From: a virus
Length of the DNA stretch: 23,700 nt
UHGV virus genome: UHGV-0302543
Reading direction: 5' to 3' (one strand)
Notes under the pieces: model-generated
The model's database searches: none
What the model saw: the letters and a program-made list of their open reading frames with translations, nothing else
What the model was told of the DNA's origin: nothing
In this document: positions 143 to 20,045 of the stretch, in pieces
How the letters are laid out: the number at the start of each line of letters is the position of its first letter
How positions within the stretch are numbered: the stretch's first letter is position 1
Made by a program: the position numbers and the translations under genes

Positions 143-430
143 ACTTTCCCACTGGCGCAACTGATCACACAGACACAACAGGATATCAGCCAGCGCCTGC
201 CCGGTTCGCAGCCGGGCGTGAATGAAACCACCCTGAATGCCATTGCGTATGCACAGGCGGGGCTGTCAGCACAGGAGCATGAACATCTGGCCTGGATCTC
301 CCGGCAGATAATTCCGACAGAAGCTGATGAAGCCGAACTCCTGAAACACTGCGCATTCTGGGGTGTCATCCGTAAACCGGCTTCCCGCGCTGACGGACCG
401 GTACAACTGATGCTGACCACGGATGCAGGG
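143..430 (+). pseudogene. baseplate J-like (gp47-like) N-terminal region lying on the plus strand, opposite to all flanking tail genes; no canonical start
   Basis: Plus frame (track ORF 218..460 and upstream in-frame codons) reads TFPLAQLITQ...LPG...LNAIAYAQAGLSAQ...EADEAELLKHCAFWGVIRKPASRADGPVQLMLTTDAG, matching the baseplate J N-terminal signature; upstream in-frame codons contain no ATG/GTG/TTG. Confidence 0.45.
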
Positions 431-789
431 ATGCGATCATGCCCCACACGCATGGCATGACATACCACGGATGTGGCAGCACCGCTTTTATGCAGCCACG
501 CCAGCGCTTCATCAGCATAGGCCTGTGCACGGCTGACCACGGAGGACAGCGTCTTTTCACGGCTTAACAGCCAGAGACGGGAGCCAACGGGGCGCTCCCG
601 GAAACTGTCTCCCCACCATCCCCGCCTGTCACGAGTGCCGTCAGGGATTTCATCAGAATCCAGCGCCCGCCTGTCCGTAAACAGCGAAATCAGAACGGCC
701 GTCAGCAGACTGTCATCCGTCAGCAGGTCGGCACCGTTCAGTTGCAGCGAGCCGCACCCCTGATCCCATACAATTGCAATATCAGCCAT
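431..789 (-). CDS. Mu gp46-like baseplate protein; 3' end unresolved (no in-frame stop before the window start)
   Basis: ATG at 787-789 overlaps the gp45 stop (ATGGCTGA); translation MADIAIVWDQGCGSLQLNGADLLTDDSLLTAVLISLFTDRRALDSDEIPDGTRDRRGWWGDSF... is protein-like for about 120 codons, then degenerates into Cys/Arg-rich antisense-like sequence. Confidence 0.6.
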
Positions 790-3852: not shown

Positions 3853-4642
3853 AGTTCCCTCCGTTCCAGACGTTCACATCCAGGCCATGCTGTGCGGTAT
3901 CATCCACATCAATACTGCGCGCCCGCCAGCCTTCAGGGGCCACAAGCTCTACCCGTGCGGCGGTTTTCGCGGTGGCCTGTCCGCCGTTTTCGTCACTGCT
4001 GCCACGCAGTTTCTGCCAGGCCTGCGTCAGCCAGCCCCCCAGATAATCACCGAGATAGCTGCCCACTGTGGAACCAATGGCAACCCCGACCGGACCGGCA
4101 GCCGCCCCCAGCGCGCCACCGGCGATACTTCCGGCAAGGGAACCCACGGCACCGGCTTTATCGGCTGCACTGGCGCTACTGTCCAGCAGTACAGGAGCCG
4201 CCATGGCACCGGCCCACAGGGCACCCCCACCCAGCCGACCGGCACCACGGAACAGCCCGGCAAAACGCCCCAGCCCCATGCGGTTTCCGGCCGCCGTTAC
4301 CAGACCACCGGCACGGCTCATCATACGACCGAAGAAGCCCTGTTTACCGGCGCTCTCCGCCAGCTGCTCACCGGCGGTCACGACGGTCGTGACACCCCGC
4401 CCGCGTCCGGGGCCGCGTTTTTTACGGCCGCGCACGGTTTTGCCGTCACCGCTGACCACCACATCCCCGCCGCCTGAGGCCAGGCCACCCGCAGGCCAGT
4501 TGGTGACCAGCACGGGCTGAACGGCAGCAGGATTTACCCCGGTAAGGAAATTCAGGAAGCGGCCAGCGCGTCCGGGCTGCGTTCCCGGCACAGTGGTCTG
4601 CGGTTTGCGGAAGGGCGACGTCAGCACGGAGGTCATCGCCAC
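3839..4642 (-). CDS. tail tape measure protein, C-terminal part (Gly-rich), separated from the N-terminal part by an inverted segment
   Basis: 267 aa; GTG start lies inside the left inverted-repeat copy; Gly/Ala-rich segment typical of tape measure C-termini. Confidence 0.7.
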   Translation of the reverse strand: MAMTSVLTSPFRKPQTTVPGTQPGRAGRFLNFLTGVNPAAVQPVLVTNWPAGGLASGGGDVVVSGDGKTVRGRKKRGPGRGRGVTTVVTAGEQLAESAGKQGFFGRMMSRAGGLVTAAGNRMGLGRFAGLFRGAGRLGGGALWAGAMAAPVLLDSSASAADKAGAVGSLAGSIAGGALGAAAGPVGVAIGSTVGSYLGDYLGGWLTQAWQKLRGSSDENGGQATAKTAARVELVAPEGWRARSIDVDDTAQHGLDVNVWNGGNYGLY

Positions 4643-4671
4643 AGTCTGAAAAAGAGCCTGAAAGGCTTCCT
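4625..4671. repeat. left repeat block in tape measure gene: 16-bp unit cacggaggtcatcgcc followed by 31-bp unit acagtctgaaaaagagcctgaaaggcttcct
   Basis: Exact reverse complements of both units occur at 4990..5036. Confidence 0.85.
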
Positions 4672-4989
4672 GGATTATGCTGATGCGGCACAGAAAAGCG
4701 GCTTACAGGATAAGCTGGCCACACAGACGGCCTCGGCCCTGAATCAGGGATTCGAGTATGCCAGAGACGCTGCAACCGGCTTTTACCGTGCCATTCAGAA
4801 AGTCAGGGAAACGCTTCAGGCACTGCGCGACGCCGGTTATGGCGATGCACTGGATCGTATTGGTCAGGGGGCGCAGACCGCCGCAAAATACCTGATGTAT
4901 ATGTATCTCGCCTCCCGCGCGCTGAAGGTGCTCAGGTTTGCGGGGGCGGGAGCATTACGTCTCGGCGCAACCCCCTTACGCTATAGTAT
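4672..4989 (+). other. inverted internal segment of the tape measure gene (coding sense on plus strand)
   Basis: Plus frame reads DYADAAQKSGLQDKLATQTASALNQGFEYARDAATGFYRAIQKVRETLQALRDAGYGDALDRIGQGAQTAAKYLMYMYLASRALKVLRFAGAGALRLGATPLRYS, helical and tape-measure-like, in frame with both flanking minus-strand parts once reverse-complemented. Confidence 0.75.
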
Positions 4990-5943
4990 GGCGATGACCT
5001 CCGTGAGGAAGCCTTTCAGGCTCTTTTTCAGACTGTCAAACGGTCCCTTTGCCATCACTTCACGGGCAAACTGATCCCAGACGTCGCCCATCATGGACGT
5101 CATTCCCGTCCAGGAATTCATGGCGTTTTTCTGGGCACCTTTTGCCTGTTCGGCCATCACCTGAAATAACAGGCGAATGCTGTCCGGCCCCAGTTTTCCT
5201 TTTTCGCCTTTCTCACGGATGAGCTTCTGGTTTACGCCCAGCTTATCGGCCAGTAACTGGTAAACGTTAATCCCGTATCCGGTCAGAATATTGGCGTCCG
5301 CTGCCTGGATACTCTGGCGGGCAAACATCTGTTTGAGTTGCAGGGACGCACCCTGTGCATCTGACAGTGACCAGCCGTGATAGCCGCCCTGATCCTGAAG
5401 CATGGTAATAAAGCGACGGGCTTCCCTGTCACTCATGCCAAACCCGCGACTGGAGGCGTATTCCTGCATAACCCCCGCCAGCCCCCAGGTGGTGTCTTTG
5501 GCGTTCTGTACTGCCCAGGCTTTCACTGCTTCCGTTTTTGCCTTATCGCCATGATTAATGGCGTTGAGACGCAGAATATAGTTCTCCATCTCTGCGGCCG
5601 GGCGGATAAAGGCTTTATTAAAACCGTAGACCGCAGCCCCTCCCGCCAGCATCCCGTAAAGGTTGCTTATCCGCCCGATGGTGCCGGTAATGCTGCCCTG
5701 CAGGCGGTCAAAATCTGACGTTACCGTGCGGATGCTGCCACGAACACCGGCAAGCGTTCGCTGCATACGGGAGCCGACAAGTTCTGTTTCCTGACCGGCC
5801 CGGCGGGCTGCATTTCCAAGACCACCCAGGCCTGTCCTGCCGGAACGGGAGAACGCCCCCAGCTCCTGTGACCACTGGCGGGATTTGGCGGAAATATTGC
5901 CGAGTAAATCGACAATCAGGGAGGCTTTCAGGTTTTTTGCCAT
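4981..5943 (-). CDS. tail tape measure protein, N-terminal part, truncated by TAG at 4981 just inside the inverted segment
   Basis: 320 aa, helical composition, immediately downstream of the chaperone gene. Confidence 0.7.
   Translation of the reverse strand: MAKNLKASLIVDLLGNISAKSRQWSQELGAFSRSGRTGLGGLGNAARRAGQETELVGSRMQRTLAGVRGSIRTVTSDFDRLQGSITGTIGRISNLYGMLAGGAAVYGFNKAFIRPAAEMENYILRLNAINHGDKAKTEAVKAWAVQNAKDTTWGLAGVMQEYASSRGFGMSDREARRFITMLQDQGGYHGWSLSDAQGASLQLKQMFARQSIQAADANILTGYGINVYQLLADKLGVNQKLIREKGEKGKLGPDSIRLLFQVMAEQAKGAQKNAMNSWTGMTSMMGDVWDQFAREVMAKGPFDSLKKSLKGFLTEVIAIL
4990..5036. repeat. right repeat block: ggcgatgacctccgtg followed by aggaagcctttcaggctctttttcagactgt
   Basis: Perfect reverse complements of the two left units, each inverted in place with order preserved. 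Confidence 0.85.
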
Positions 5944-6070
5944 GGGTTACTGCTTCGTTCTGAGAATTTTTTCGGTCTGTCGGCAGTGCCGGTAAAGCTG
6001 CGATAAGGGGAGGTTAAGCGCCCACTCCGGGCCGCTTTTTGTCACCATCCCCAGCACAATTGCGGCTTCT

Positions 6071-6547
6071 TCAATCTGATCCCGGCACTGCATCTGGTCG
6101 CCCCCGTTCAGCGACCAGCTTTCCTGCCATCGCGGAATCAAGCAGGCTTACCGCCGCCATCAGACGGGAGAGATCGCGCTCGCTGAGCTGTCCGATCTGA
6201 CGCGGAGATAATGGCCCCTCAATCTGGCCGACAGCGGCAATCTGACGGCGCAGCAGCGCAATGCCGCGCAGTGCCGGAGAGGCCACCAGAACCGGACCGT
6301 TTCGGGTTTCCATAAGACGCTCGGCCTCACTCTCCGCATCAATGCTGTCTTTCGCCGTCAGTTCGCGGAAGGTGACGCGGTATTCACGGGATTCACCGAA
6401 CGGCAGGCCGTCGAGCAGATCCACATAGCCGTTCACCAGCTGTTCAGCCAGCCCGGCGGTGCGGGGATCGCCGTCTTCAAGTGCATCCCGGATAGCCTCC
6501 ATCACGGCCTCGTCAGAAACCGCCGTTTTTTTCTTACGTGTGCTCAT
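6071..6547 (-). CDS. tail assembly chaperone (Mu gp41-like); overlapping ORF 5947..6141 may be a frameshift extension
   Basis: 158 aa between tube and tape measure genes; the overlapping ORF is in the +1 frame and ends 4 nt before the tape measure start; a G5 run (plus-strand C5 at about 6101-6105) lies in the overlap. Confidence 0.55.
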   Translation of the reverse strand: MSTRKKKTAVSDEAVMEAIRDALEDGDPRTAGLAEQLVNGYVDLLDGLPFGESREYRVTFRELTAKDSIDAESEAERLMETRNGPVLVASPALRGIALLRRQIAAVGQIEGPLSPRQIGQLSERDLSRLMAAVSLLDSAMAGKLVAERGRPDAVPGSD

Positions 6548-6935: not shown

Positions 6936-8438
6936 TCACAAAATGAAACGGATCTGTGCTGCCAGGAAGCGGAACTGGTTAACCAGATCCGGCGTGCATA
7001 ACACGTCAAGGCGGTTTCGATCTGACGTATTACGCTCCACAAGCAGATTCTTTTTAAACGTGTCCAGATTTTCGACCAGCCCGAGTTCCACCCACTCTTC
7101 ACCCAGCGAAATTAACTGAAGCTTCATGATCTCCGGCGTCACGATATTCTGACCGGCACGAACGGGCGTCCCGTCATCAGCCAGTTTATGGCGCGGAAAA
7201 CGTTGAGTGATGAAAGTGCGCAGGGAATAACGCAGATATGACAGGGTGTAGATGGTTTCCACATCCAGATAGCTGGGATCACTTTCGCCGTACACGTTCT
7301 GGCGATACATCGTCACCTGACGCTCAATCTGAACCATATCCCCGGCCGCCACACTGACCGTGGCAATCCCTCCCCACAGCAGACTGTTACGCTCTTCACG
7401 CGTCAGACGATCGGCCGGGGCCGGGGCCATGCGTGACGGAAGCGCCAGCGTCTGAAGCGGACGCGCAGGATCTGCTCCCAGAGAGGGTGCACAGGTGGCA
7501 CAGACCGCCGCTGCCCAGAGGTAATCCGGTTCAGGGGCTTTGGGAATGGATGTGCAGGTCGCCAGAAAATCATTGCGTTTTGCCCCGAATGCCTGCACCT
7601 CACCAAACGTGCCGGTATGTGCCAGCCACAGCACGCCGTCAGACATTTTGGCCGGTCCCCAGCGTTTCAGAAGTTCATCACTGATGATTTTCAGGTTTGC
7701 ATCGTCCTTGTAGGGCATGACAACATAGTTGTACTGGCGATCCCCCATTCCGGCCACACTTCGGGTGATATCGGGATTGCGGGCTCTTGAGGAGGGAAAG
7801 CCTGTCTGGGGCGTCAGCCCTGACGGCAGGGTTTCACCGTCGTGATAATTCAGGCGCAGATCGTGCACAGAGCATTCACCAATGAAGCGGGCGCTCACTC
7901 CCATACTTCCTTTCAGACCGCCTGCATTACTGCCATCAACAACCGCAGATACAGCTGTGAATGGCGCATCAGTATCCTTATTTATCAGGGCAACAAGCGC
8001 ATCAATGATAGCTTTTCCTTTTTGTCCGGCTTTTACGGGCAGCGCATAGCGTCGTCCACCAATATAGATGCAGAGCAAACCATCGGTCGCAGCCGTACCG
8101 GTAAGGTTAAAGGCGGCGGCATTTGCCCCGCCTGTTCCGGCCCCCTGCGCAATAGCATACAGTTCCGCATCAGGATTGATGGCAATAAATTCAGCCACCA
8201 TCAGAGCGATCATGGAGCCACGCCCCCAGAGCTCCACAGCCTGAGAGGCGCGAGTGATCCTGACCGGAACATCCAGCACACCGGTACCGTCCACAGCATT
8301 CTCTTTCATTCTCGCCTGACCAAACAGCAGCACACACTGACGCTGTGCCGGGGTGCCGGTGACCGCCATGGAGTTATTAAACTCAACCCCAATCAGCGGT
8401 ATACGGCGGTCATTACCGATCCCGTCAAAATTAATCAT
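6936..8438 (-). CDS. contractile tail sheath protein (Mu gp39 / L-like)
   Basis: 500 aa, sheath-like size and composition, upstream of the tube gene. Confidence 0.85.
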   Translation of the reverse strand: MINFDGIGNDRRIPLIGVEFNNSMAVTGTPAQRQCVLLFGQARMKENAVDGTGVLDVPVRITRASQAVELWGRGSMIALMVAEFIAINPDAELYAIAQGAGTGGANAAAFNLTGTAATDGLLCIYIGGRRYALPVKAGQKGKAIIDALVALINKDTDAPFTAVSAVVDGSNAGGLKGSMGVSARFIGECSVHDLRLNYHDGETLPSGLTPQTGFPSSRARNPDITRSVAGMGDRQYNYVVMPYKDDANLKIISDELLKRWGPAKMSDGVLWLAHTGTFGEVQAFGAKRNDFLATCTSIPKAPEPDYLWAAAVCATCAPSLGADPARPLQTLALPSRMAPAPADRLTREERNSLLWGGIATVSVAAGDMVQIERQVTMYRQNVYGESDPSYLDVETIYTLSYLRYSLRTFITQRFPRHKLADDGTPVRAGQNIVTPEIMKLQLISLGEEWVELGLVENLDTFKKNLLVERNTSDRNRLDVLCTPDLVNQFRFLAAQIRFIL

Positions 8439-8701: not shown

Positions 8702-8726
8702 GACCGCCGTTGTCGTGTTCCCCGGC
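8702..8726. repeat. left copy of a perfect 25-bp inverted repeat (gaccgccgttgtcgtgttccccggc)
   Basis: Exact reverse complement at about 9058..9082; coordinates +/-1. Confidence 0.85.
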
Positions 8727-9088
8727 TGGTCAGTCACTGGGTGTTCTACGTCATCGGCGACATGCTCAACGGGCGTGAGGCCAGCCGTCCCGGACTGTAT
8801 CAGATTGTGGCCCGGCTGATTGCCGTGCTTAACGGCTTCAGAACAGAAAAAACCTCACCGCTTTACTTTGAAAAGGCGGTCAACGGTTACACCGAAACCC
8901 AGGCGAACAGTGGGGCCGTGATGTATGCGCTTTATTTCTCCTGCGAGGAAATGATCGCGCCACTGACGGATATCAGCTCGCTGGACGACTTCCTGCGTCA
9001 TTACGAAACCTTTGTGGAGCCGCCCGGTACGCCGCCGTTTGAGGCACATATTGATTTGCCGGGGAACACGACAACGGCGGTCCGTTAA
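8727..9088 (+). pseudogene. body of the gp37-like head gene in inverted orientation (sense on plus strand)
   Basis: Plus frame reads VSHWVFYVIGDMLNGREASRPGLYQIVARLIAVLNGFRTEKTSPLYFEKAVNGYTETQANSGAVMYALYFSCEEMIAPLTDISSLDDFLRHYETFVEPPGTPPFEAHIDLPGNTTTAVR*; every flanking gene is minus-strand. Confidence 0.75.
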
Positions 9089-9209
9089 TCAGCATGGTGC
9101 GCAGTACGCTGTCGCTCCAGTCGCCGGGATGCGTGTCAACAGACACAAGTTCATTCCCGAAATACTCACGGATACGGGCGATGTATGCCTGTTCGGTTTC
9201 CGTAATCAT
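8973..9209 (-). pseudogene. gp37-like N-terminal fragment (first 42 codons plausible, then reads into the repeat and antisense of the inverted body)
   Basis: ATG overlaps the gp36 stop (ATATGA); MITETEQAYIARIREYFGNELVSVDTHPGDWSDSVLRTMLIN followed by low-complexity sequence and stop. Confidence 0.65.
9058..9082. repeat. right copy of the 25-bp inverted repeat (gccggggaacacgacaacggcggtc)
   Basis: Perfect reverse complement of 8702..8726. Confidence 0.85.
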
Positions 9210-9625
9210 ATGAAGCCCTTCTGGTTGCGCCCGAATACCGCCGCATCAGACTGAACCTGTGGTAAATCCCCGGATTCAGGGGCCGCACCGTTCGTATCCA
9301 CACCTACCGGCACATTGCCGTTCATGACATCTTTCAGCCAGGCCAGCGCTTCACGGTAACGGTCACGCGCCTGATCGGAGGCTCGCTGATCGCACAGGTA
9401 ATAAAAGGCAATCGCGCAACAGTGCTGAACAAGAACAGCCGGGATAACCTCCAGCGGCAGCGTGTAACGGGCGGACAGATAGCTGTCGATAAGGGCTGAC
9501 GCATCTGTCAGCGCCCGGTTCAGCTTGCGCGTGTCCAGCTCATCCGAACGGGGCACTGCCAGTAACGGCCTGAGCAAATCCTCGCGGTAACGCGCCCGCA
9601 TATCGCTTTCAGTGGCGTAATTCAT
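9206..9625 (-). CDS. Mu gp36-like protein (DUF1320-like)
   Basis: 139 aa starting MNYATESDMRARYREDLLRPLL; position between gp35-like and gp37-like genes. Confidence 0.6.
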   Translation of the reverse strand: MNYATESDMRARYREDLLRPLLAVPRSDELDTRKLNRALTDASALIDSYLSARYTLPLEVIPAVLVQHCCAIAFYYLCDQRASDQARDRYREALAWLKDVMNGNVPVGVDTNGAAPESGDLPQVQSDAAVFGRNQKGFI

Positions 9626-9993
9626 GCGCGGGCCTTTTTCGCCTGTTTCGCTTTGTTACCGGTCTTTTTCCGGGGAGCATCCTGTCCGGCTTCGGCTTCG
9701 GCTTCGGCTTCGGCTAAATCTGTACCGGCCACTGCATGAACCACACCCGCCACGCTCCCCGCATCATCAGCAGGCGTCTGTAGTATTCGCACAGTGAGGC
9801 ATGGCTCCGCCTCCAGTCGGGCAAGCTGCTCCGGGGTGACCTCAACCTGCTGACGTCCACGCGTGAACAGGAACCCCGCACGACGAAACGCCGAACGACT
9901 GCAACGCACTTCTGCCAGCACCGTGACAGAATTGTCACCACTGACCTGAAGACCTGAATCATCTGTTGCTGCCACAGTGTGATGTTCATTCAT
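9622..9993 (-). CDS. hypothetical head-region protein (Mu gp35 position) with AEAEAEAE repeat and Lys/Arg-rich C-terminal tail
   Basis: 123 aa; GGAGGG RBS upstream of the ATG; contains the hexanucleotide tandem repeat. Confidence 0.45.
   Translation of the reverse strand: MNEHHTVAATDDSGLQVSGDNSVTVLAEVRCSRSAFRRAGFLFTRGRQQVEVTPEQLARLEAEPCLTVRILQTPADDAGSVAGVVHAVAGTDLAEAEAEAEAGQDAPRKKTGNKAKQAKKARA
9688..9715. repeat. tandem hexanucleotide repeat (ggcttc), about 4.5 copies, inside the gp35-like CDS
   Basis: Read directly: ggcttcggcttcggcttcggcttcggct; encodes (AE)n on the minus strand. Confidence 0.85.
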
Positions 9994-10036
9994 ATTTGCC
10001 CTCCGCAGGGGCCGGGCCGTAAACCCGGCTCACCGT

Positions 10037-10984
10037 TTACAGATAATCCGCGACAACCAGCTCCAGCTTGCCCTTCATCTCGTTAGAGACGGTTGCGTTT
10101 CCGTCTGCGAACAGTTCACGCTCCAGCAGCTGCACCGCCTGTTTTTCCAGCGAGGTGGGGACAACAATATGGGTGGGTTTGATGCCGAGCTTGCGGCCAC
10201 CGTCAGCGGTAAATTCGCGCATGGCTGACCAGCCGTGCCACAGTGCATCCAGCGTCAGCGGTGACTGCATCATGTAGGCCATCTGCCAGAAGCCGTAGCC
10301 CACATTGCGACGGGCGGAAGCACCGAACACAAATTCGTTATCGGTGAATGCGCGACCTTCATCGACTTTGGTCTGGGCAACCAGTTCAGCCTTACGGCGA
10401 TCCTGATAAATCAGCGGTTTGATTGCGCGTGAACAGTCGAGCAGATACCAGGCAGGACCGCTGTAATCCGCCTGTGCACCGACAGAGCCGGTTTTTGCCA
10501 CAAACATATTGCTGACCATCTGCGCATCCCCGGAGCCATCCACTTTGGGGTAAACAGGATGTTCGGTATCAAAGAAGTTCTGGCCGTCATAGCAGGCCGC
10601 ATTAATCCCGTCACGAAGAGCAGCAAAGACCAGTTCATCCGGTTGTGCCGCAGCAGCGCGCCCCATCTCCTGGAACAACGGGGAATAAATACCGAGGTTA
10701 TCGTCTTCGAAGTCATCGCGGTTAATGGCGACGGTGCCTTCAAAGGTTTTGTTCACGATGGCATAGCCATAGGCCTTCATCTTCTCGATGACGCGGGAGC
10801 CGATCCACTCACGGAACTGCGGGAACTGCCCCAGCCAGCCGTAGGTGTTGGATTTCGAGGTGGAGGGCACGGTCATCGCAATTTTTTTGTACTGCGACGG
10901 GGCCATGGACACCCCGGCCTGAAAATCAGAACGGTAGCCCGTCATCAGGGCGGTGATCATCGCCGGTGTAATCGGGGTAGGCAT
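10037..10984 (-). CDS. major head (capsid) protein (Mu gp34 / T-like)
   Basis: 315 aa immediately downstream of the protease/scaffold gene. Confidence 0.8.
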   Translation of the reverse strand: MPTPITPAMITALMTGYRSDFQAGVSMAPSQYKKIAMTVPSTSKSNTYGWLGQFPQFREWIGSRVIEKMKAYGYAIVNKTFEGTVAINRDDFEDDNLGIYSPLFQEMGRAAAAQPDELVFAALRDGINAACYDGQNFFDTEHPVYPKVDGSGDAQMVSNMFVAKTGSVGAQADYSGPAWYLLDCSRAIKPLIYQDRRKAELVAQTKVDEGRAFTDNEFVFGASARRNVGYGFWQMAYMMQSPLTLDALWHGWSAMREFTADGGRKLGIKPTHIVVPTSLEKQAVQLLERELFADGNATVSNEMKGKLELVVADYL

Positions 10985-12108
10985 TATTGCATTTCCTCTT
11001 TCATTTTCAGGAATTCGGCTTCGGTTTTACCCAGAAGATGGGCGGCGGCGATATCTTCAGCCGACAGCGAGGCGGTGGCGGTCTTTTTATCCGGCACGGT
11101 CACGGTGTCGGTCTGAAGGCCGGTCAGGGCTGCAACCGGCTGTCGGGCGTCAAGCTGTGCAGAAAGTGCAGTAACACCAATCTGCCCACCCAGCTGTTCC
11201 AGATAGCCGCGTTCGCTTTTGAAGATGCGCCCTTCGGACTCGGCCTTGTCCAGCACCTGCTCCAGCGTGGTGCTGCCGTGCTGTGCTGACAGCGCAACGT
11301 ATTCGGTACGCAGGGCGTTATACGTTTCAATGGGCACATATTTCGTCAGATCAATACTGCCGCCAGCCGGTGTACCTTTTGCGGTTTCCAGCTCTGCCGA
11401 CAGACTGGCGACCTGTGTTTTCAGGTTGTCGTGTGCATCCGCACGGGTTTTGATCCCGGTGAGGGCAGACAGCGCCGCCGTGCCCAGCTCCGGCGTAAAT
11501 TCGTCACCGTCAGCCACGGTCAGACCGAGCGCCGTCAGCAACTGGCGTAATTGCTCATTCATGGAGGTATCCTTTAAAGGAGGGTTTAAGGCGTTATAAA
11601 GGTCATCCGCCGACAGCGCGGCGACAGGATTCATGCCGGTCAGACCGGGGTCACCGGTAATAGCCAGCATCCGAAGTTCGACAGGTTCGCCGGTGTTCTC
11701 GTCATAGCCAATCACCGGTGAAAACCAGGGGAATTCGTTATTACGCAGATGTTCAAGGGCCGGAGGGTTCCACTTCGGGCGCACCTCGAAGCCACGCTCT
11801 TCACTGAAGCGGAAGTTTTCCGGTGAAGCCGTCACAAAACCGGCAGCCGGTGCCTGATGCCCCTTAATCAGGGTCTGGTGGTTGTAGTCAATTTTTACCG
11901 GCTGATTGAGCGCCACAACCCGGGATACCATGCGCTCAACGGTCGCACGGTTAATCAGCCAGCCTTCAGCCGGTTTTTCCGGGCGACCGTCACGGGCCTT
12001 TACCCGACCGGCTGGCATGATCTGACACCAGTCACCGTCCCCGTCTGCGGACAGGCTGATGGCATTCAGAATGGCATAAGCAAGTTTGGGCGTGTTTTTC
12101 GTCTTCAT
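10984..12108 (-). CDS. head protease/scaffold protein (Mu gp32 / I-like)
   Basis: 374 aa; N-terminal protease-like region and C-terminal helical scaffold-like region. Confidence 0.75.
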   Translation of the reverse strand: MKTKNTPKLAYAILNAISLSADGDGDWCQIMPAGRVKARDGRPEKPAEGWLINRATVERMVSRVVALNQPVKIDYNHQTLIKGHQAPAAGFVTASPENFRFSEERGFEVRPKWNPPALEHLRNNEFPWFSPVIGYDENTGEPVELRMLAITGDPGLTGMNPVAALSADDLYNALNPPLKDTSMNEQLRQLLTALGLTVADGDEFTPELGTAALSALTGIKTRADAHDNLKTQVASLSAELETAKGTPAGGSIDLTKYVPIETYNALRTEYVALSAQHGSTTLEQVLDKAESEGRIFKSERGYLEQLGGQIGVTALSAQLDARQPVAALTGLQTDTVTVPDKKTATASLSAEDIAAAHLLGKTEAEFLKMKEEMQ

Positions 12109-12255
12109 TCCGGCAGCATAAGCCGGGAATTTTCAGGGCGGGTTTTGCGGGATTTCAGGAAGTGCTTTCAGGGGAAAAATACAAAGGCGCTTCACGCAGA
12201 TTTTAAAGCCCGTTAAATACAGGTTAGAAAATCACGACACGCGCCTGAAGGGGGT

Positions 12256-12278
12256 AAGGTAATGCATTTGCATACCTT
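12256..12278. promoter_or_regulatory. dyad-symmetric element aaggta-atgcatttgca-tacctt in the G-I intergenic region; candidate operator or late-promoter activator site
   Basis: 6-bp inverted arms around a palindromic core, in the 176-nt intergenic region upstream of gene I where a C/Mor-dependent late promoter is expected. Confidence 0.3.
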
Positions 12279-12284
12279 AAACAA

Positions 12285-12758
12285 TTAAGGCGTTTCTGTG
12301 GCCTTTTTAAAGCGTTTTCTGATTTCGTCCATGATCTCCTGTTCAGCCACCTCATCAAAGCCCATATACGGACGTGCGCCAATGGCTGCCAGTCCCGGTG
12401 GCATACCAGGCAGGCCACCCCACTGATGAATGGCTGCATAAGGTTCATTTGATCCAATCAGCGCCCAGGTATCGCCATAATCCGTGGTCAGGCGGCGGGC
12501 CAGATCGCCGTTCAGCGTCAGGATTTTGCCGGGCGTGTATCCCTTACGGGTACGCCACTTGCGGTAAGGATCTGACCAGTCATGCCAGCGTTCGCCGTCC
12601 GGCTCTTTTTCCTGTTCAAACGCCATTTCTGAGGATGACAGAAGGCTGGACGCCACACTGCGGGCCAGGTCTTTTCCGCCCCCCACAAACTGAAGCCGGG
12701 CAAACACCCGCTGGAGACGCGTAACGTCAACAACGACAGCGGCATCAATGGATGACAT
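12285..12758 (-). CDS. virion morphogenesis protein (Mu gp31 / G-like)
   Basis: 157 aa; GGAGG RBS; position between F and I homologs. Confidence 0.75.
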   Translation of the reverse strand: MSSIDAAVVVDVTRLQRVFARLQFVGGGKDLARSVASSLLSSSEMAFEQEKEPDGERWHDWSDPYRKWRTRKGYTPGKILTLNGDLARRLTTDYGDTWALIGSNEPYAAIHQWGGLPGMPPGLAAIGARPYMGFDEVAEQEIMDEIRKRFKKATETP

Positions 12759-12880
12759 ATTGCCTCCGTGAAACTACCTGGTTAAAATAAAAGCAGGTCG
12801 GTGTACTCTTAACTGGTAAAGCGGCGCCTGATGGTTTTTTCCTGAGGGATGTTTATGCGGGTTCGACCCCCGCCACCGAC
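12759..12880 (-). other. structured intergenic region between F and G (nested stem-loops followed by a T-run on the minus strand)
   Basis: 9-bp long-range complement aggtcggtg / caccgacct encloses the hairpin gcggg-ttcgacc-cccgc; minus strand continues CTGCTTTTATTTT. Confidence 0.3.
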
Positions 12881-14206
12881 CTACAATTCACCCTCCAGTA
12901 ATTCCAGCTTTCCACCGCGCAGATCATCAAGTAATGCCTCCTTTTTGACTCTGTAGGCATTAATCACCACATCCAGCTTATCCGGCTGACGTTTCACACT
13001 ATAAGGCGCATTGACGGCAATCTTTGCCGTTCCGTCACGGGTTTCAGTGATGTAAAGCAGATTCTGATGGACATGATCCCACAGCACGGCATCAGGCGCG
13101 GCCAGCATTGCCGGTAATCGCCCGAAATCCTCCGGCGTCAGGGCAATGCCGTCATTCTGATGTTTCACGCTGTCCGCATGGAGCACATTTTTACCGCTCA
13201 TCGCCAGCAGGCGGGCCGGTGGCGTTCCCGTCCGGCTTTCCACCGCCTGCGCAATACTTTCGGTCATAAAGCCCAGCGTGCGGATATCGTGACCACCTCG
13301 CCGGGTCTTCATGATGTTTTTTGCCCAGATGCGGAACGCCAGCTGCCGCTCCGGGCTGTTGTTCATCTCCTGAACCACCATTTCCCGTAACGCCGGGCTT
13401 TTCACCTCGATCAGTTTACGGATCAGCGCCTGGTCTGTGCCGAACGCCGCCGAACCGGGGTTATATGACCAGCCCACATCCGGTGTCATGGTTCTGGTGC
13501 CATCTGAATATGTGGTCACCGGCATTTCTCTGACTTCTCCGGTCTGCTTATCCACGCCAGCCTCAACATTGCGGGTGGAGAGATGATCCTGACCGGATGA
13601 AACGGATAACCCCATTGCATCCAGACGGGCCTGAGATAATGGCCGGACACGGCAGCGGCAGTTCCAGCCATTGGGCGGGTAGTGTGTATTCCAGAACGGA
13701 TCGTCATAGCGGAATACCAGCCCGTTAAAGGCGGAATGTGCCGGGCGGGTGCGGCTGTCCATCACCGCCACATACTGCCAGAACGGATGCGTGTCCGTGT
13801 TGTTCATCATCTGCGTGTAACGCCCGGCATTGTAAGCCACACGGGTGTTCACGTTGTAAATCAGCGCCAGACGGCGGGGACTGCCCAGCTGCACTTCTTC
13901 CGCGTTACCGGCACTGTCCACCACAATCTGTTTTCCCCACCATCCCAGCTTTTGCAGGCGGGGTGTCAGCGTGCGAATAAATGCTTTCTGTGAAATCCCC
14001 TCATCAACAGCACGCTGCACTTCCGCCTGTAGTGTGGTCAGTACGTCCAGGCGTGCCACTTTTGCCGCCGTGAATGAACGGGCATGAACATCCGCGTCTG
14101 TTTCGAACCAGTTCCAGCTGATATGCGCCCCTTTGGCGCGGAAGTATGCCACCGCCTCTTTTGAGGGAAGCGTGGCGGCATAACCCAGATCAATCCCCTG
14201 TGCCAT
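12881..14206 (-). CDS. head morphogenesis protein (Mu gp30 / F-like)
   Basis: 441 aa containing the F-family GWNCRCRV motif; directly downstream of the portal gene. Confidence 0.8.
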   Translation of the reverse strand: MAQGIDLGYAATLPSKEAVAYFRAKGAHISWNWFETDADVHARSFTAAKVARLDVLTTLQAEVQRAVDEGISQKAFIRTLTPRLQKLGWWGKQIVVDSAGNAEEVQLGSPRRLALIYNVNTRVAYNAGRYTQMMNNTDTHPFWQYVAVMDSRTRPAHSAFNGLVFRYDDPFWNTHYPPNGWNCRCRVRPLSQARLDAMGLSVSSGQDHLSTRNVEAGVDKQTGEVREMPVTTYSDGTRTMTPDVGWSYNPGSAAFGTDQALIRKLIEVKSPALREMVVQEMNNSPERQLAFRIWAKNIMKTRRGGHDIRTLGFMTESIAQAVESRTGTPPARLLAMSGKNVLHADSVKHQNDGIALTPEDFGRLPAMLAAPDAVLWDHVHQNLLYITETRDGTAKIAVNAPYSVKRQPDKLDVVINAYRVKKEALLDDLRGGKLELLEGEL

Positions 14207-15788
14207 CCAGCATCCCCTTCATTTCCGCAGCAAACATGGCATCACTGAGCAGCGTCATCAGGCGGGAATCATCCATTTCACGGTAAAGGGCGGGCAGGTC
14301 TGCCAGCGCATCCGCCAGCCCCCGCGTTCTGATGGCATCAATGACCGGCTCCAGTAGCGGGTCGATGGCCTCCTGTAACCGGCGGGCAGGCACCGCATCC
14401 CCCATGTCGTCCAGTTCATCACGGGGGCTGCTTTTCGCTTCCGGCACTCGGGCTGACAGCGCCGTCTGCTCTGTCTTTTCCTGTGTTTCCGGTGGTATTT
14501 CCCTGTCAGTCTGAGCCGGTTCATTGCCACTCTGACGGACACGGAAGATGGCTTCGCCGGGCGTGGGCTGCGGAATACCCGTCTGCTCACGTATCCAGGG
14601 ATCAGAAATATCCATCCCCGTACTGAGCTGCATCACCGCACTGGTGATTTTGGTGATATCCCCCGGTTCTTTTGTCTGGAAGCAGATACGTGGCAGACGG
14701 CGGATATCAATAGTGTGCGTGGTGTTCAGGGCGTACAGCGGATACACCAGATCGCGGTTCAGCGTGGCAGCCAGCTGACGTAAATCAGAATCCCTGATTT
14801 CCCGGCGCACCTCGTTATGCACTTCACCCAGCGAGCGCGCGCCTTTGTCTCCGGCTTCCGTGGTCAGCGTGCCGCCGAGGATAGCTTTGGAGATGGAACG
14901 CTCCCCCCACGAAATCATGGTTTCAAACGGATCGGCCTGACCGTTCGCTGCCGCCTGAAACTCCAGCGACATCCCGGCCGGGATGATCCCGCCTGTACGT
15001 CGCCCGATATCCATCACCGCCCGCATCAGGGCGCTTTTCTGCTCCGGTGTTGCCCCGGACGGGTATTTACCGACCTTCATCGGCAGGCCGTACACTTCCA
15101 GAAATTCAGCCAGATCGCGCACGGAATAGTTTTTGAAAATGAACGGCCAGATAAGCGTTCTGACAAGCCCCGTTGCGCCGCCGTAACCGGTGCGTGAACG
15201 TGACTGATGCACTATCCAGCCAAAGGGCTGAAACGCCACCCCGGCATGGCTGCCGTCACGCAGCCGCAGTTCGCTCAAATCATCCGGGTTAAGGCAGAAA
15301 TGCCCGCTGTCACGCCAGCGGATGGCGCGGATGATGTGCATTTTACCGAGCATCCCGTGCTCAATCTCCATACAGGAATAGCCCTTCAGGATGGCATCGG
15401 TAGCATCAAACAGCATGGCATCAAACCAGTCGGCGGAATGCAGATATTCGTCGAGCATTTCCGCGTCCTTTTTCTCATTCGCGCTGGCGTTCGGTGGCGG
15501 CTCAATGCTCCATGGCACGCCCTGAATGGCAAGACGTCGCTTGCCCAGCTCTGCAAAAAGGTGGGTGTCCTTTTCTTCAATGTCAGCCGCCAGATCGGAC
15601 TGGGCAATCAGATCGCCATGTTCAGCCCCGCGAAGGCACTGCGCCGCCCGGTTCGGGGTGATACCCGAGGCCGGATGTTCAATATAACGGCTGGCAATCT
15701 GCGGAATATCCAGCACGGCACTCTGCATCTCCGGGTCAAAGGAGAAAGGTTTTCCGTCAAGATCAATTATGCGTCCCACTACCAGCAC
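14190..15788 (-). CDS. portal protein (Mu gp29-like, DUF935 family)
   Basis: 532 aa immediately downstream of the large terminase with overlapping start. Confidence 0.8.
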   Translation of the reverse strand: MLVVGRIIDLDGKPFSFDPEMQSAVLDIPQIASRYIEHPASGITPNRAAQCLRGAEHGDLIAQSDLAADIEEKDTHLFAELGKRRLAIQGVPWSIEPPPNASANEKKDAEMLDEYLHSADWFDAMLFDATDAILKGYSCMEIEHGMLGKMHIIRAIRWRDSGHFCLNPDDLSELRLRDGSHAGVAFQPFGWIVHQSRSRTGYGGATGLVRTLIWPFIFKNYSVRDLAEFLEVYGLPMKVGKYPSGATPEQKSALMRAVMDIGRRTGGIIPAGMSLEFQAAANGQADPFETMISWGERSISKAILGGTLTTEAGDKGARSLGEVHNEVRREIRDSDLRQLAATLNRDLVYPLYALNTTHTIDIRRLPRICFQTKEPGDITKITSAVMQLSTGMDISDPWIREQTGIPQPTPGEAIFRVRQSGNEPAQTDREIPPETQEKTEQTALSARVPEAKSSPRDELDDMGDAVPARRLQEAIDPLLEPVIDAIRTRGLADALADLPALYREMDDSRLMTLLSDAMFAAEMKGMLDGTGD

Positions 15789-17443
15789 CCCCGATCAAAT
15801 TTATGATATGCCTCATCGTCATCACGATAACCGCCCTCCATGGCCCGCGACCGCTCCGGCAGCGCCTGACAGGCTGATTCATCCAGGATGAAACCCTCCA
15901 TGTATGACGCCCGGTTTGCCATACAGAGTGCCACGGCAAAATCACCATGGCGGCGGGCGTTCGCAGCCGTTGCGTTCTGGTCCTTCGTGCGCCCCTTGTC
16001 GATTTGCGGGATACCATTCACCACCTTCACATGGCGCAAATCATCAAGCGTGGTCTGATGGCGGGCGACGAGGATATTCTGATCTTCAAACTCGGCTTTC
16101 AGTTTTGGCATCCACTCGCCGTACCACTTCGGCGACAACATCACGCAGTCGATGATGTCCGGGCCAAAGGCCAGCAGCGCGGCTTCTGCCAGATAGCCGC
16201 CGTTACCGGTGGCGTCAAACGCTGCACCAACCAGGGCCGGAACGCGGGTCAGGATGTACATCATCACCTGCTCCTGCTGGGCATACGGCAAGTTGCGCAG
16301 CTCCACGCGAAACACCTCACGTTTTGCCAGGGATTCGGTGATTTCCAGCAGCACAAAGCAGGAGAGGTCACCGGTGCGGGCAAAGTCTTCCCCGAAGCTG
16401 AAGCGGGAACGGGGATTTAACGCCTCTAAAAGCGGTTTTAAATGTTCTTCACACCAGGTTAAAACTTCCGATTCACGCAGCCATGCGGCACGGCTGATGA
16501 AGTCGTCCGGGGCTTCAAACGTCAGAATCGGGATGTCGCGGATCATCGCCATTTCAATAAGTGCGTGAGGAATATAGGCACCGCCGGATTTTTTCGGGAT
16601 ACAGCCGTATTCCTCGTCGGCATCCTCACGGGTCGGGGCGTTTTTGTAGAGATCATCACGCCACTTCTGCTCGCTTTCCGGTGACCATTCGCGGCCGGTG
16701 ACATAACAGATACGACGGTACAGCCCGTCCGCAATGGCATCATCCAGGGTTATGCGGTGGACGCTGTAATCCTTGCGTCCCTCGCGGGCTTCCTGAATGT
16801 ACTGATTAAACAGATTATCGACGCCGTTATGCGTGGAGATAATACGCACGCGCGCGCCCCACATGGTAAGCGCCATTGCCGCCTTGAGAAGCTCATCCAG
16901 TGACTCGTGGAACGCGGCTTCATCAATCACCACATCTCCCTGAAGGCCGCGCAGGTTTGACGGACGGGAAGACAGTGCCTGAATTTTGAATCCACTGTTC
17001 GGAAAGCGGATCATGTAGGTCAGAATTTCTTCTTTTTTATCCCGATCCCAGAAGGTCTGCTCATACACATCAGCATCTGCCAGCTGGTTAAAGGCACGGG
17101 AGAACAGGGCGCAGGCAGAAATATATTCCAGCGCCATCTCCTGCTTTGACCCCACATAAAACACATTGCGGCCACCGCGCCGCTTCGGTTTTGCAGCGGT
17201 AATGACGTTACGCCCGGCTTCCGCCCAGGTAAGCCCGGTACGGCGGGATTTTTCCGCGATGCAGACCTCGCTTTCATCCTCAAACCAGCGGGCCTGATAA
17301 TCCAGAAATACCGGCATATCACCGGGCAAATCAAGGCTGTCCGGCACATCCACGCCCAGCAGGGCTTTTTCACCGGCCAGATCAATTTTGCGGGTGGAGA
17401 CGGTATTCGTCAGTAAGGGGGAGAGTTCTTCGGCGTTATTCAT
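15779..17443 (-). CDS. terminase large subunit (Mu gp28-like)
   Basis: 554 aa; Walker-B-like VVIDEAAF and nuclease-like C-terminal region. Confidence 0.85.
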   Translation of the reverse strand: MNNAEELSPLLTNTVSTRKIDLAGEKALLGVDVPDSLDLPGDMPVFLDYQARWFEDESEVCIAEKSRRTGLTWAEAGRNVITAAKPKRRGGRNVFYVGSKQEMALEYISACALFSRAFNQLADADVYEQTFWDRDKKEEILTYMIRFPNSGFKIQALSSRPSNLRGLQGDVVIDEAAFHESLDELLKAAMALTMWGARVRIISTHNGVDNLFNQYIQEAREGRKDYSVHRITLDDAIADGLYRRICYVTGREWSPESEQKWRDDLYKNAPTREDADEEYGCIPKKSGGAYIPHALIEMAMIRDIPILTFEAPDDFISRAAWLRESEVLTWCEEHLKPLLEALNPRSRFSFGEDFARTGDLSCFVLLEITESLAKREVFRVELRNLPYAQQEQVMMYILTRVPALVGAAFDATGNGGYLAEAALLAFGPDIIDCVMLSPKWYGEWMPKLKAEFEDQNILVARHQTTLDDLRHVKVVNGIPQIDKGRTKDQNATAANARRHGDFAVALCMANRASYMEGFILDESACQALPERSRAMEGGYRDDDEAYHKFDRGCW

Positions 17444-18024
17444 CAGACTTTACCCAACAGAATCCCCTTAATACGGGACTCAAGCTGTTCACTCATCCCG
17501 TCCACGCCGCGCAGCTCGTCGGTGACCGCGTTTGCCATCTCTTCAGCAAATGCGGCCCGGATTTCTTTTTCACGCTTAATGCTGCGCTCGGCGGCACTTT
17601 CCGCACGCTGTGCTGACAGGAGGATGTCTTTGATGAGGCGCATATCCACGTCGCTGTCGCTGTTCAGAGATTCGGTCGCGGCACGCAGGCGGCGGTACAT
17701 CAGGGCGCGGGACATTTCCAGAATCAGTGCAGTGGTTTCACCGGTTGGCTTGTCCCCCAGTTCGGCCATCATGGCTTTTGTCTGCTCGCGTAAATCACGC
17801 AGGTTACGGGCAATCAGCTCATTACGGGAGGCTTCCCGGCTGATGGCCGCCGGTGAAAGCTGCTGCTCTTCCGGCAGGCCCACCTCACGGATCAGACGGT
17901 TGATTTCCTCGCGGATCTGGACCTGCGTCAGACGTTTTTCACGCAGCATTTCCAGCAGCGGCTTACGGATGCTGTCGGGGAGCAAATCCACCTTGCGTAC
18001 ACGACCACGCGTCGGCTTGTCCAT
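17443..18024 (-). CDS. Mu gp27-like protein (DUF3486-like; putative terminase small subunit)
   Basis: 193 aa starting MDKPTRGRVRKVDLLPDSIRKPLLEML; AAGGGGG RBS; immediately upstream of the large terminase. Confidence 0.6.
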   Translation of the reverse strand: MDKPTRGRVRKVDLLPDSIRKPLLEMLREKRLTQVQIREEINRLIREVGLPEEQQLSPAAISREASRNELIARNLRDLREQTKAMMAELGDKPTGETTALILEMSRALMYRRLRAATESLNSDSDVDMRLIKDILLSAQRAESAAERSIKREKEIRAAFAEEMANAVTDELRGVDGMSEQLESRIKGILLGKV

Positions 18025-18026
18025 CG

Positions 18027-18317
18027 TTACCCCCTTGCGCGTGGTTTCTTCACACCCGGAACGCAGGCCCGGCCTTCCGCCACATCCTGCCCACGACCGG
18101 TCAGTTCCGCGATGAAATAACCGTTAATCAGAACGCGTTTGCGCACCAGTCCCTGCTCGGCAAGCCAGGCAATGTGGGTGTGAACGGTGTCGCGGGACAC
18201 GCGGTGGCCGTAATCATCCAGACAGTCCTGGAGCACGGATTCACCCAGTTCACCGTTGTAATCTGCCAGCGACCGCAGAATGACCAGACGCTGATCTTCA
18301 GTAATGAAATCACTCAT
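18027..18317 (-). CDS. hypothetical small protein, winged-helix-like (Mu gp26 position)
   Basis: 96 aa, ATG start, position only. Confidence 0.4.
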   Translation of the reverse strand: MSDFITEDQRLVILRSLADYNGELGESVLQDCLDDYGHRVSRDTVHTHIAWLAEQGLVRKRVLINGYFIAELTGRGQDVAEGRACVPGVKKPRARG

Positions 18318-18622
18318 TGCGTTTTTTTCCTTACAGCCTGCTCCAGCAGCAGTTCGTTCTGATAGGAGACAGAGCGGAGCGTGGCGTTCGTGGTTTTCAG
18401 TTCACCCCGCAGGGTCACGATTTCCACATTCAGACGGTTGACCTCGGCTTCTGTCGGCAGTGACGACAGGCGGGTTTCCACCTTCTCAACGCGGTCGGAG
18501 AGTTTTTCAAAGGCCTCGCGGGGGACAAACGTTTTGCGCATCAGCGCCATGAATATCCCGCCAGCGGTTGCCGTCGCCGAAAGGATCGGCACAACATAAT
18601 CTTTAACGATGCTGACCCACAT
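18314..18622 (-). CDS. Mu gp25-like membrane protein (DUF2730-like); candidate releasin for the SAR endolysin
   Basis: 102 aa; N-terminal hydrophobic helix VVPILSATATAGGIFMALM followed by a coiled-coil-like region; position in the lysis cassette. Confidence 0.5.
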   Translation of the reverse strand: MWVSIVKDYVVPILSATATAGGIFMALMRKTFVPREAFEKLSDRVEKVETRLSSLPTEAEVNRLNVEIVTLRGELKTTNATLRSVSYQNELLLEQAVRKKTQ

Positions 18623-18827
18623 GACGTGCCTCCATGATGTTCTGGCAGTTCACACAACGGATGGCATCCGGCACAGCAACAAGACGTGCGGCGGGGATCT
18701 CTCCGCCACAGTCTGCGCAGACACGTCTGCCCGGAGCATCCATTGCCCGGCGCTTACGTGTCAGCCGGTTACAAAGGGCGCGTTCTGATCCCCGCTCCAT
18801 CACAGCCTGAGCACGATCTGAATCATC
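18603..18827 (-). CDS. TraR/DksA-family C4 zinc-finger protein
   Basis: CADCGGEIPAARLVAVPDAIRCVNCQ C4 motif; start trimmed to the internal ATG preceded by AAGGAAAAAGG (track ORF began at an upstream TTG). Confidence 0.75.
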   Translation of the reverse strand, partial: DDSDRAQAVMERGSERALCNRLTRKRRAMDAPGRRVCADCGGEIPAARLVAVPDAIRCVNCQNIMEARHVGQHR

Positions 18828-18840
18828 CATACCTTTTTCC

Positions 18841-19212
18841 TTACTTCGTCTTTCCTGCCGGAACAGCAGGCGTTCCGGCCATATCAGTAAATTCATGTTG
18901 TCGCCGCGCCTCCAGACGACGAATACTGGCCTTGTCCACGTTGCAGTTCTTGATCACCGCCAGCAGTTGCAGGTTGTAAGTGACCGATGCCCCAAACGTG
19001 AACGGCTCCGGCGCAGGAGGCACCAGGCAGTCAGCCAGCCATTCAGCGGGGATCGGCACCGGCTTCACAGGCACGTATTTCACAGACGGCCCGGCGCACC
19101 CGATCAGCCACATCATCAGGAACAGGGGCAGAGGCCGCAGGCACTGCTGCCAGCGACCGGCGGACAACGCTCTGCTGCCCCTCGCTGTGCTGAATGTTCT
19201 GTTGTTTTTCAT
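18841..19212 (-). CDS. o-spanin (Rz1-like outer-membrane lipoprotein), overlapping the 3' end of the i-spanin gene in another frame
   Basis: Signal peptide with lipobox LIGC (…PLPLFLMMWLIGCAGPS…), Pro-rich mature region; start chosen at the internal Met of track ORF 18841..19323. Confidence 0.55.
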   Translation of the reverse strand: MKNNRTFSTARGSRALSAGRWQQCLRPLPLFLMMWLIGCAGPSVKYVPVKPVPIPAEWLADCLVPPAPEPFTFGASVTYNLQLLAVIKNCNVDKASIRRLEARRQHEFTDMAGTPAVPAGKTK

Positions 19213-19543
19213 TCGTGGCCGCCTCACTGATTTGTGAAATGAGTTGCAGGGTGCGTTGCTGGTTTGCCAGCACCAGACGGGCTTCGTCCCGTTCGCGCAC
19301 AAGCACATGATTATTGTCCTCAAGGCGCTGCGTCTTCTGGTGCATTCCCCATACCACGGCAGCCAGCACGCTCATCACCCCCAGCGCCGCCATACAGCCT
19401 CCGGCAATCAGGGCCGGTAAGGGATTATTCACCGCAGCCACAGCACACCCCGCAGCAGCACAACGGCACACAGCAGCGCAATCATGAGCGGTCGCCAGAA
19501 GCGGTTCAGACTTTCGGCAAATCGTAGCGACATAACCATTCAT
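19043..19543 (-). CDS. i-spanin (Rz-like); start codon uncertain
   Basis: Hydrophobic TM segment ALIAGGCMAALGVMSVLAAVVWG followed by a long coiled-coil-like periplasmic region with C-terminal cysteines; overlaps the endolysin 3' end. Confidence 0.55.
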   Translation of the reverse strand: MNGYVATICRKSEPLLATAHDCAAVCRCAAAGCAVAAVNNPLPALIAGGCMAALGVMSVLAAVVWGMHQKTQRLEDNNHVLVRERDEARLVLANQQRTLQLISQISEAATNEKQQNIQHSEGQQSVVRRSLAAVPAASAPVPDDVADRVRRAVCEIRACEAGADPR

Positions 19544-20006
19544 CCGCCGAACGGCGGGCCTCAAGACCGGGGAGTTTCACCCCCTTCGAATAAATCCAGC
19601 GGATGTACTGCTTACAGGACGCGGGCATCTGCCCGGCATTGATCAGGCGCAGAAGCGTGGAGTTGCGGAAGTTCGTTTCACCAGCCCAGAAGATCCACGA
19701 AGCCAGCGCCACCGTCTGACCACGGGTAAGCGGCACCTGAACACGCCGATCAATGGCCGCAAAGGCCCATTTCATGTCCTTTTCCAGTAGTTCCAGGCAT
19801 TCTTCATCCGTCAGGGTCATACCCGGTTTCACATCCGGGCCGGTATGGCCGTAACAGATGGTTGGTGTACCGGTGGGATCGATATACGTGGAGTTTTCTT
19901 TCCCTTCCCAGTAACCGGTGTAATGCGTGGTAATGGTGAACGTCCCGGCACCGGCCAGAACAAGGGCAATCAGCTTTTTACGCAGTGGTGCGGGGAGTTT
20001 TGGCAT
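19506..20006 (-). CDS. SAR endolysin (phage lysozyme with N-terminal signal-anchor-release domain, phage 21 R-like)
   Basis: N-terminal hydrophobic LIALVLAGAGTFTITT followed by the lysozyme core motifs EGKENSTYIDPTGTPTICYGHTG and TLLRLIN. Confidence 0.85.
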   Translation of the reverse strand: MPKLPAPLRKKLIALVLAGAGTFTITTHYTGYWEGKENSTYIDPTGTPTICYGHTGPDVKPGMTLTDEECLELLEKDMKWAFAAIDRRVQVPLTRGQTVALASWIFWAGETNFRNSTLLRLINAGQMPASCKQYIRWIYSKGVKLPGLEARRSADEWLCRYDLPKV

Positions 20007-20007
20007 T

Positions 20008-20045
20008 GTTACGCTGTCTCATGATGTTCTCTGAGTCAGCGTAAC
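20008..20045. promoter_or_regulatory. 9-bp inverted repeat gttacgctg / cagcgtaac with 20-nt spacer abutting the endolysin start codon
   Basis: Read directly in the 71-nt mor-lys intergenic region; the 3' arm (on the minus strand) ends 1 nt before the lys ATG. Confidence 0.35.

Follow-up and report, generated by a model that had tools for sequence, protein, structure and literature searches.

Several described systems produce, or appear to produce, inverted segments flanked by repeats. In the Gin/Hin/Cin switches, to which the G segment of phage Mu belongs, a segment is inverted between one simple inverted pair of crossover sites. Inversions that arise from staggered double-strand breaks and carry inverted duplications of the breakpoint sequence are established in Drosophila (PMC5080602, PMC3355041). 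The four-point "switch-and-return" model of template switching (Loytynoja and Goldman 2017, PMC5453318) includes an event of type 3-1-4-2, from which two inverted repeats enclosing an inverted spacer result. Finally, scaffolding is known to produce a class of errors in which contigs are joined in the wrong orientation (PMC4053845).

Here, we describe an inverted block within the tape measure gene of a Mu-like Escherichia coli prophage, contained in a 23,700-nt stretch of a virus genome (UHGV-0302543; hereafter, the window, meaning the whole stretch analysed). An earlier account of this DNA, made from the letters without database searches (the sequence-only reading), had singled out the block and left three options for it, namely, a switch, a defective prophage or a chimeric assembly. 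The block, denoted E2, and two further inversions of its class, E1 and E3, were compared with related loci in complete bacterial genomes, draft assemblies and phage records. E2 is a fixed, non-reversible and non-functional scar or an assembly error, not a genetic switch; the first of the three options is thereby lost, and the defective prophage and the chimeric assembly remain standing.

The interrupted tape measure gene and its repeats

The assignment of the gene, which agrees with the sequence-only reading, is supported by domain content and neighbourhood. Its product matches the Pfam profile PF20155 (TMP_3) with 65.5 bits, against a curated cut-off of 41, and the domain corresponds to residues 111-297, inside the N-terminal fragment described below. 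In all relatives, the gene lies between the gene for a Gp41_Mu chaperone and the genes for DNA_circ_N (DNA-circularization) and baseplate proteins, that is, among Mu-type neighbours.

In the window, no single uninterrupted open reading frame (ORF) covers this gene: it is divided into fragments of 320 amino acids (aa) and 267 codons, and the 106 codons between them lie on the other strand (Table 1). The N-terminal ORF finishes with "...KGFLTEVIAIL" at a TAG codon past the right repeat block. The C-terminal ORF, which includes a glycine-zipper-like region, has no native start signal, and a GTG supplied by the junction is its sole opening. Both of these ends had been recognised beforehand, as had the possibility of restoring an in-frame ORF, then put at about 700 aa, by reverse-complementing 4672-4989 and removing 47 bp. 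When this operation was carried out, the reconstructed junctions were in frame and a single ORF of 685 aa was obtained; its 2,058-nt gene matches the intact copy base for base in 7 of the 10 near-identical E. coli assemblies compared. Alignment to the relatives further indicated that the inverted peptide belongs to the protein in all of them.

A repeat search of the window identified two exact inverted-repeat pairs at the ends of the block, one of 17 nt (P) and one of 31 nt (Q), which have base 4641 in common; this shared base represents 1 nt of junction microhomology. String comparison places the 16-nt unit delimited in the sequence-only reading, reverse-complemented, at 4990-5005 and the 31-nt unit, likewise reverse-complemented, at 5006-5036, with the left-to-right order of the units being identical in the left and right blocks (P-Q ... 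rcP-rcQ, un-nested). The two units, their reverse-complemented right copies and the preserved order had thus been read accurately in every particular, and comparison with relatives bore out the further proposal that an ancestral block was inverted in place with both of its termini duplicated. The E2 block, which encodes tape measure residues ~313-419 on what is now the wrong strand, stands in for 317 nt between the flanks and shares 17 bp with the left flank and 31 bp with the right one. Because it overlaps both flanks, there is an inverted duplicate at each end, and the unit order is the same at both ends. The chance expectation for inverted repeats of at least 16 nt within 600 nt in this window is ~0.003; exactly 3 were observed, all of them at inversion junctions.

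Table 1. Features of the inversions and of the tape measure gene fragments in the window (ancestral coordinates are those of rc-L011, the reverse complement of the reference L011)
Feature	Size	Position	Strand	Description
E1	284 nt	149..432	+	reverse complement of ancestral 7558-7841; left 99 bp lost, right 98 bp lost
C-terminal tape measure fragment	267 codons	3839..4642	-	opens at junction-made GTG
P, left copy	17 nt	4625..4641		native end of left flank; ancestral 12132-12148
Q, left copy	31 nt	4641..4671		inverted duplicate of native 5006-5036; first 31 nt of inverted block
E2, inverted block	365 nt	4641..5005	+	exact reverse complement of ancestral 12132-12496
N-terminal tape measure fragment	320 aa	4981..5943	-	313 native + 7 junction-derived residues (TEVIAIL), then TAG
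P, right copy, reverse complement	17 nt	4989..5005		inverted duplicate closing inverted block
Q, right copy, reverse complement	31 nt	5006..5036		native start of right flank
E3	357 nt	8726..9082	+	reverse complement of ancestral 16162-16518; left 25 bp duplicated, right 56 bp lost

Sister inversions and the related loci

Comparison of the whole window with relatives exposed E1 and E3, two further short inversions of the same class as E2, with all three events located within 9 kb; their anatomy was measured against a near-identical reference, rc-L011 (Table 1). E1 deletes the start and the N-terminus of baseplate J and leaves GP46 out of frame past residue 119. E3, in which the left duplication forms an inverted repeat (8702-8726/9058-9082), cuts Gp37 (DUF1834) down to 78 aa. 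Together, E1-E3 break four tail or baseplate genes: baseplate J, GP46, tape measure and Gp37. The remainder of the window (9083-23700) is colinear with the closest complete relative, JNEC-KY203, at 99.4% identity.

The uninverted form of the E2 region was found in 31 complete E. coli genomes and 2 phage records, which align in two colinear pieces at 83% query coverage and in which the region measures 2,154 bp, compared with 2,201 bp in the window. The 685-aa tape measure gene is intact in 10 of 10 assemblies that carry an identical neighbouring 452-aa protein, and the gene is uninverted in 10 more divergent loci as well. Across 24 related loci (87-100% identity), all three blocks are oriented, relative to their immediate flanks, opposite to the window, with the inverted form present in 0 of the 24. 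P and Q are single-copy coding sequence in every relative and are inverted-duplicated only in the window.

Searches with the junctions themselves gave a similar picture. A 30-mer across the E2 junction had 0 matches in IMG/VR, the GTDB species representatives and the JGI metagenomes, the junction was spanned by none of 5,426 complete E. coli genomes, and nine junction-specific ORF products had no exact match among ~15 billion proteins. The lone exact match among ten junction ORFs was the 267-aa fragment, which two contigs of the ancestral type carry as a partial protein at their ends. A private-SNP probe against IMG/VR and look-ups of three neighbouring proteins likewise yielded no second instance. 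In these comparisons, E1, E2 and E3 are all private to the present sequence. The first 13.8 kb of the window contain zero private substitutions, every base being found in at least one relative, and because three private rearrangements are set against this background, gradual decay of the prophage was rejected as an explanation.

Origin of the inversions

The copied fragments are 284-365 nt in length, and each is 100% identical to the reverse complement of adjacent sequence. The joins are blunt, with 1 nt of microhomology at all three left junctions and 0 nt at all three right junctions, a pattern with a chance probability of ~0.007-0.016 of occurring in all three events. Examination of the 12 breakpoints of E1-E3 yielded neither a common motif nor pre-existing inverted repeats; 8-nt inverted matches near E1 and E3 fall off the joins. 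Expressed in the four-point model, the orders of the switch points are 1-3-2-4 for E1, 3-1-4-2 for E2 and 3-1-2-4 for E3, and the jump distances are 383, 348 and 332 nt, with a range of up to 413 nt.

The origin that we favour, with a probability of roughly 0.55, is that short pieces were placed backwards when the record was built; we consider this more likely than a burst of real events. Three pieces of 284-365 bp, that is, of the size of a read or a small contig, would have been set in reverse among larger ones, with blunt joins. The inverted duplications (17, 31 and 25 bp) would be what is left of overlaps between a piece and its neighbour, and bases would be missing (99, 98 and 56 bp) wherever a piece was too short to reach its neighbour. 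A short overlapping piece pasted backwards between two larger pieces would also produce the geometry of E2, by a non-biological route. The mixture of overlap and loss at the ends, the blunt joins, the restriction to one record and the lack of point divergence are all consistent with such an error. So is the clustering of the events, as multi-copy Mu-like prophages break up draft assemblies in this very region: two independent public contigs end 3 nt from the E2 breakpoint, up to 8 copies of the region are present in some genomes, and many partial tape measure proteins are found on contigs of ~1 kb or less.

Other features of the window fit a construction error less well. The ends of the two public contigs are displaced from the E2 breakpoint by 3 nt, and this displacement counts against an artefact. 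The overlaps vary (17, 25 and 31 nt), whereas contigs from one de Bruijn graph assembler would share a constant k-1, and the window contains no N spacers. Stitched pieces in the correct orientation should leave same-orientation scars; therefore, the absence of same-orientation duplications or gap scars elsewhere in the window also speaks against stitching. The recurrent left-1/right-0 microhomology hints at a polar physical process, and we know of no specific assembler that yields such a pattern. Comparison of the breakpoints with the boundaries of prophage alleles, where contig ends would be predicted, is uninformative in either direction, given that divergent alleles mismatch every few bases. 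One particular assembly error, a de Bruijn graph mis-join at a shared k-mer, was rejected because the overlap at the junctions is just 0-1 nt.

The strongest competitor, although the less probable of the two, is a real burst in the cell, with template switches or break-rejoin events occurring during one disturbed episode of replication or repair. If template switching was responsible, a nascent strand would have jumped, three times in 9 kb, ~330-380 nt ahead to the complementary strand and come back after copying 284-365 nt in reverse; with E2 being an event of type 3-1-4-2, the interleaved order of its repeats would follow. If breaks were rejoined, three small fragments would have been excised and reinserted backwards after fill-in or resection; to our knowledge, E. 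coli lacks classical end-joining. By either route, the outcome would be a prophage unable to build tails.

The dimensions and the junctions of the events bear on this explanation in opposite directions. Typical template-switch events are expected to be much shorter than 284-365 nt, and fragments of this length look unusually long for short-range switching. Known template switching in E. coli relies on pre-existing quasi-palindromes or microhomology, and the junctions have 0-1 nt of microhomology with no nearby inverted repeat. On the scale expected for the model, these events do not show the short range, short fragment and base-pair priming of a template switch. Nevertheless, the events are regular in ways that favour a real process: each replaced span is a single, fully identical reverse-complement copy of adjacent sequence, the three jump distances are alike, the left-1/right-0 microhomology recurs, and point 4 never comes ahead of point 1 in E1-E3, as in all the event types observed in PMC5453318. 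The confinement of inverted duplications to the inverted arrangement is, moreover, the accepted signature of staggered breaks in Drosophila (PMC5080602). Two staggered breaks followed by fill-in, the mechanism advanced in the sequence-only reading, fit E2 and no other event, and staggered breaks alone cannot yield the losses of 56-99 bp at the ends of E1 and E3.

Junctions in a consensus assembly normally require read support, and zero private SNPs suit a single recent episode, but three rare events without point change, absent from more than 50 related sequences, have a very low prior. It seems unlikely that the flips are real and date from one catastrophic replication or repair episode in which homology-free strand switches over ~350 nt disabled the tail module in one step.

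The notion of a programmed invertible switch, in which a site-specific recombinase would use the inverted repeats to turn the tape measure gene or tail production on and off, is highly improbable, although the segment is flanked by inverted repeats and a resolvase-family invertase is encoded in relatives of the prophage. Simulated flips on the 31-nt pair and on the 16/17-nt pair gave products of 436 aa and 320 aa, respectively, so that either flip leaves a truncated gene; the intact 685 aa is attainable solely by a flip combined with the 47-bp deletion, and no single flip restores the frame. The genuine Gin-type invertible segment of the relatives is located just past the left end of the window, with 179-nt arms 1,077 nt apart and a resolvase-family gene adjoining. 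This segment provides a positive control, as it occurs in both orientations, 7:6 among 13 loci, in which E1-E3 are invariant; the alternative orientation with the E2 repeats was found nowhere in the genome, virus, metagenome and protein collections searched. The longest match between the E2 repeats and the 179-nt arms is 6-7 nt. The E2 repeats are, furthermore, duplicates of unique coding sequence, which is the mark of a scar and not of a recombination site, and the sister events E1 and E3 are without paired repeats.

The search for a recombinase elsewhere in the prophage, which the sequence-only reading had suggested, found no such gene in the window, which is colinear with a span free of recombinases in one relative (L003, 8001-31880). 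The Gin-type invertase gene of the relatives is ~3 kb outside the left end of the window, beside its own segment and repeats. Taken with the simulated flips, the lack of an inverted relative and the 7:6 control, this contradicts the switch option. Action of the invertase at cryptic sites was likewise rejected, given that it would leave no duplications or deletions and that the sites are unrelated.

Implications and comparison with known systems

Whichever origin applies, lesions of this kind have been described before. Should the sequence be correct, this copy of the prophage could not make tails, its tape measure gene and three other tail or baseplate genes being broken; should it be erroneous, the record calls for correction. 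Only real junctions would be of interest for bacterial mutagenesis, as a cluster of strand switches that span several hundred nucleotides and do not depend on homology. A more general lesson is that an inverted segment with odd repeats needs to be checked against close relatives over its whole neighbourhood, a step that here turned one curiosity into three events.

E2 resembles the Gin/Hin/Cin switches, and specifically the Mu G segment, in that inverted repeats enclose an inverted segment of a Mu-like prophage, the relatives of which encode an invertase of this type. Unlike these switches, with their simple pair of sites, E2 has two interleaved units. The genuine switch of the relatives gives intact genes in both states, has 179-nt arms and is divided 7:6 between its orientations; E2 has none of these properties.

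With the staggered-break inversions of Drosophila, E2 has in common inverted duplications that are confined to the inverted arrangement, every one of which derives from single-copy sequence at one ancestral breakpoint. The Drosophila inversions are of chromosomal size, and the organism has end-joining repair, whereas E2 is a 365-bp, intragenic inversion in E. coli. The staggered-break model describes E2 alone among the three events, bases being missing at both ends of E1 and at one end of E3.

The geometry of E2 is exactly that of the 3-1-4-2 event of the four-point template-switch model, and E1 and E3 match the types 1-3-2-4 and 3-1-2-4 (PMC5453318). What this model does not lead one to expect are fragments of 284-365 nt, joins with 0-1 nt of microhomology and a cluster of three events within 9 kb of prophage DNA in a bacterium. 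A real episode of this kind would be the small-scale equivalent, in bacteria, of chromoanasynthesis.

Misoriented contigs or gap-fill pieces (PMC4053845) would be expected to leave N spacers, a constant k-1 overlap or same-orientation stitch scars, and in this respect E1-E3 differ from such artefacts. They resemble them in that read- or insert-sized pieces are flipped between larger colinear blocks and joined bluntly, with leftover overlaps or missing bases, in one record and in a region that fragments in public draft assemblies.

Further short inversions, and contig ends near the tape measure breakpoint

Two further blocks of the window, E1 and E3, are likewise short inversions and share a class with E2, the inverted block that splits the tape measure gene; E1 disrupts GP46/baseplate J and E3 disrupts Gp37, the latter leaving an inverted repeat of 25 nt (Table). 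Near the left breakpoint of E2, two contigs from independent public drafts (L028 and L029) both terminate at the ancestral, uninverted sequence ...CATCGCCATAC, 3 nt past the breakpoint, and this end point marks the border of a variable patch dividing two tape measure allele families.

Table. Coordinates of features in the window and in related loci.
Feature	Location	Strand	Remark
E1	window 149-432		short inversion
E3	window 8726-9082		short inversion
Inverted repeat left by E3	window 8702-8726 / 9058-9082		25 nt
Draft contig L028	end equivalent to window 4644		Logan SRR24079804_42448
Draft contig L029	end equivalent to window 4644		GCA_043919935.1 DAZUGY010000446.1
64-codon ORF	window 5947-6141	minus
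Gp41_Mu tail assembly chaperone gene	window 6071-6547
FluMu_N/HI1506-related gene	window 9622-9993	minus
Perfect hexanucleotide repeat CGGCTT x4.8	window 9687-9715		within FluMu_N/HI1506-related gene
Phage_tail_S gene	window 12285-12758
MuF gene	window 12881-14206
G-segment-like invertible region	L004/L005 15656-17090		relatives; about 1.6-3 kb past the window's left end

Larger rearrangements among relatives

The G-segment-like region found in the relatives L004 and L005 is a real invertible segment of this prophage family: its inverted arms, 179 nt each, are spaced 1,077 nt apart, a gene for a resolvase-family invertase adjoins it, and both orientations occur among 13 assemblies (7:6). What flips with the segment is the tail-fibre assembly gene. 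In two other relatives, L014 (GCA_012704225.1) and L017 (Logan SRR22858708), the block that runs from Gp48 as far as the tape measure gene (about 13465-20372) lies on the opposite strand from the head genes, and both have a cut or altered sheath gene. This reversed block results either from a large inversion, from recombination of one prophage copy with another, or from a join made in assembly.

Local variation and gene annotation

Most of the substitutions private to the window, that is, absent from all compared relatives (27 of 33), fall in a dense patch at 22885-23156 that straddles the boundary between the Gp12-like gene and the one that follows it and looks like a mosaic allele unrepresented among the 23 compared loci; the IMG/VR contigs that carry a 44-mer from it have an overall identity of only 95-97%. 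The CGGCTT repeat, a break point in alignments to several relatives, looks like an in-frame tract of variable copy number, and the product of the gene that contains it ranges from 102 to 149 aa across near-identical relatives. Between the Phage_tail_S and MuF genes, at the spot equivalent to window about 12760-12880, RefSeq annotates a "tRNA-OTHER" in three relatives (L001, L002, and L003); ARAGORN detected no tRNA or tmRNA in the entire window.

The 64-codon ORF, annotated as a gene of its own in one relative (L010), is located downstream of the Gp41_Mu gene, overlapping its 3' end, and directly upstream of the tape measure gene. A short ORF that overlaps the 3' end of the chaperone gene and precedes the tape measure gene is the usual layout of chaperones produced by programmed frameshifting.
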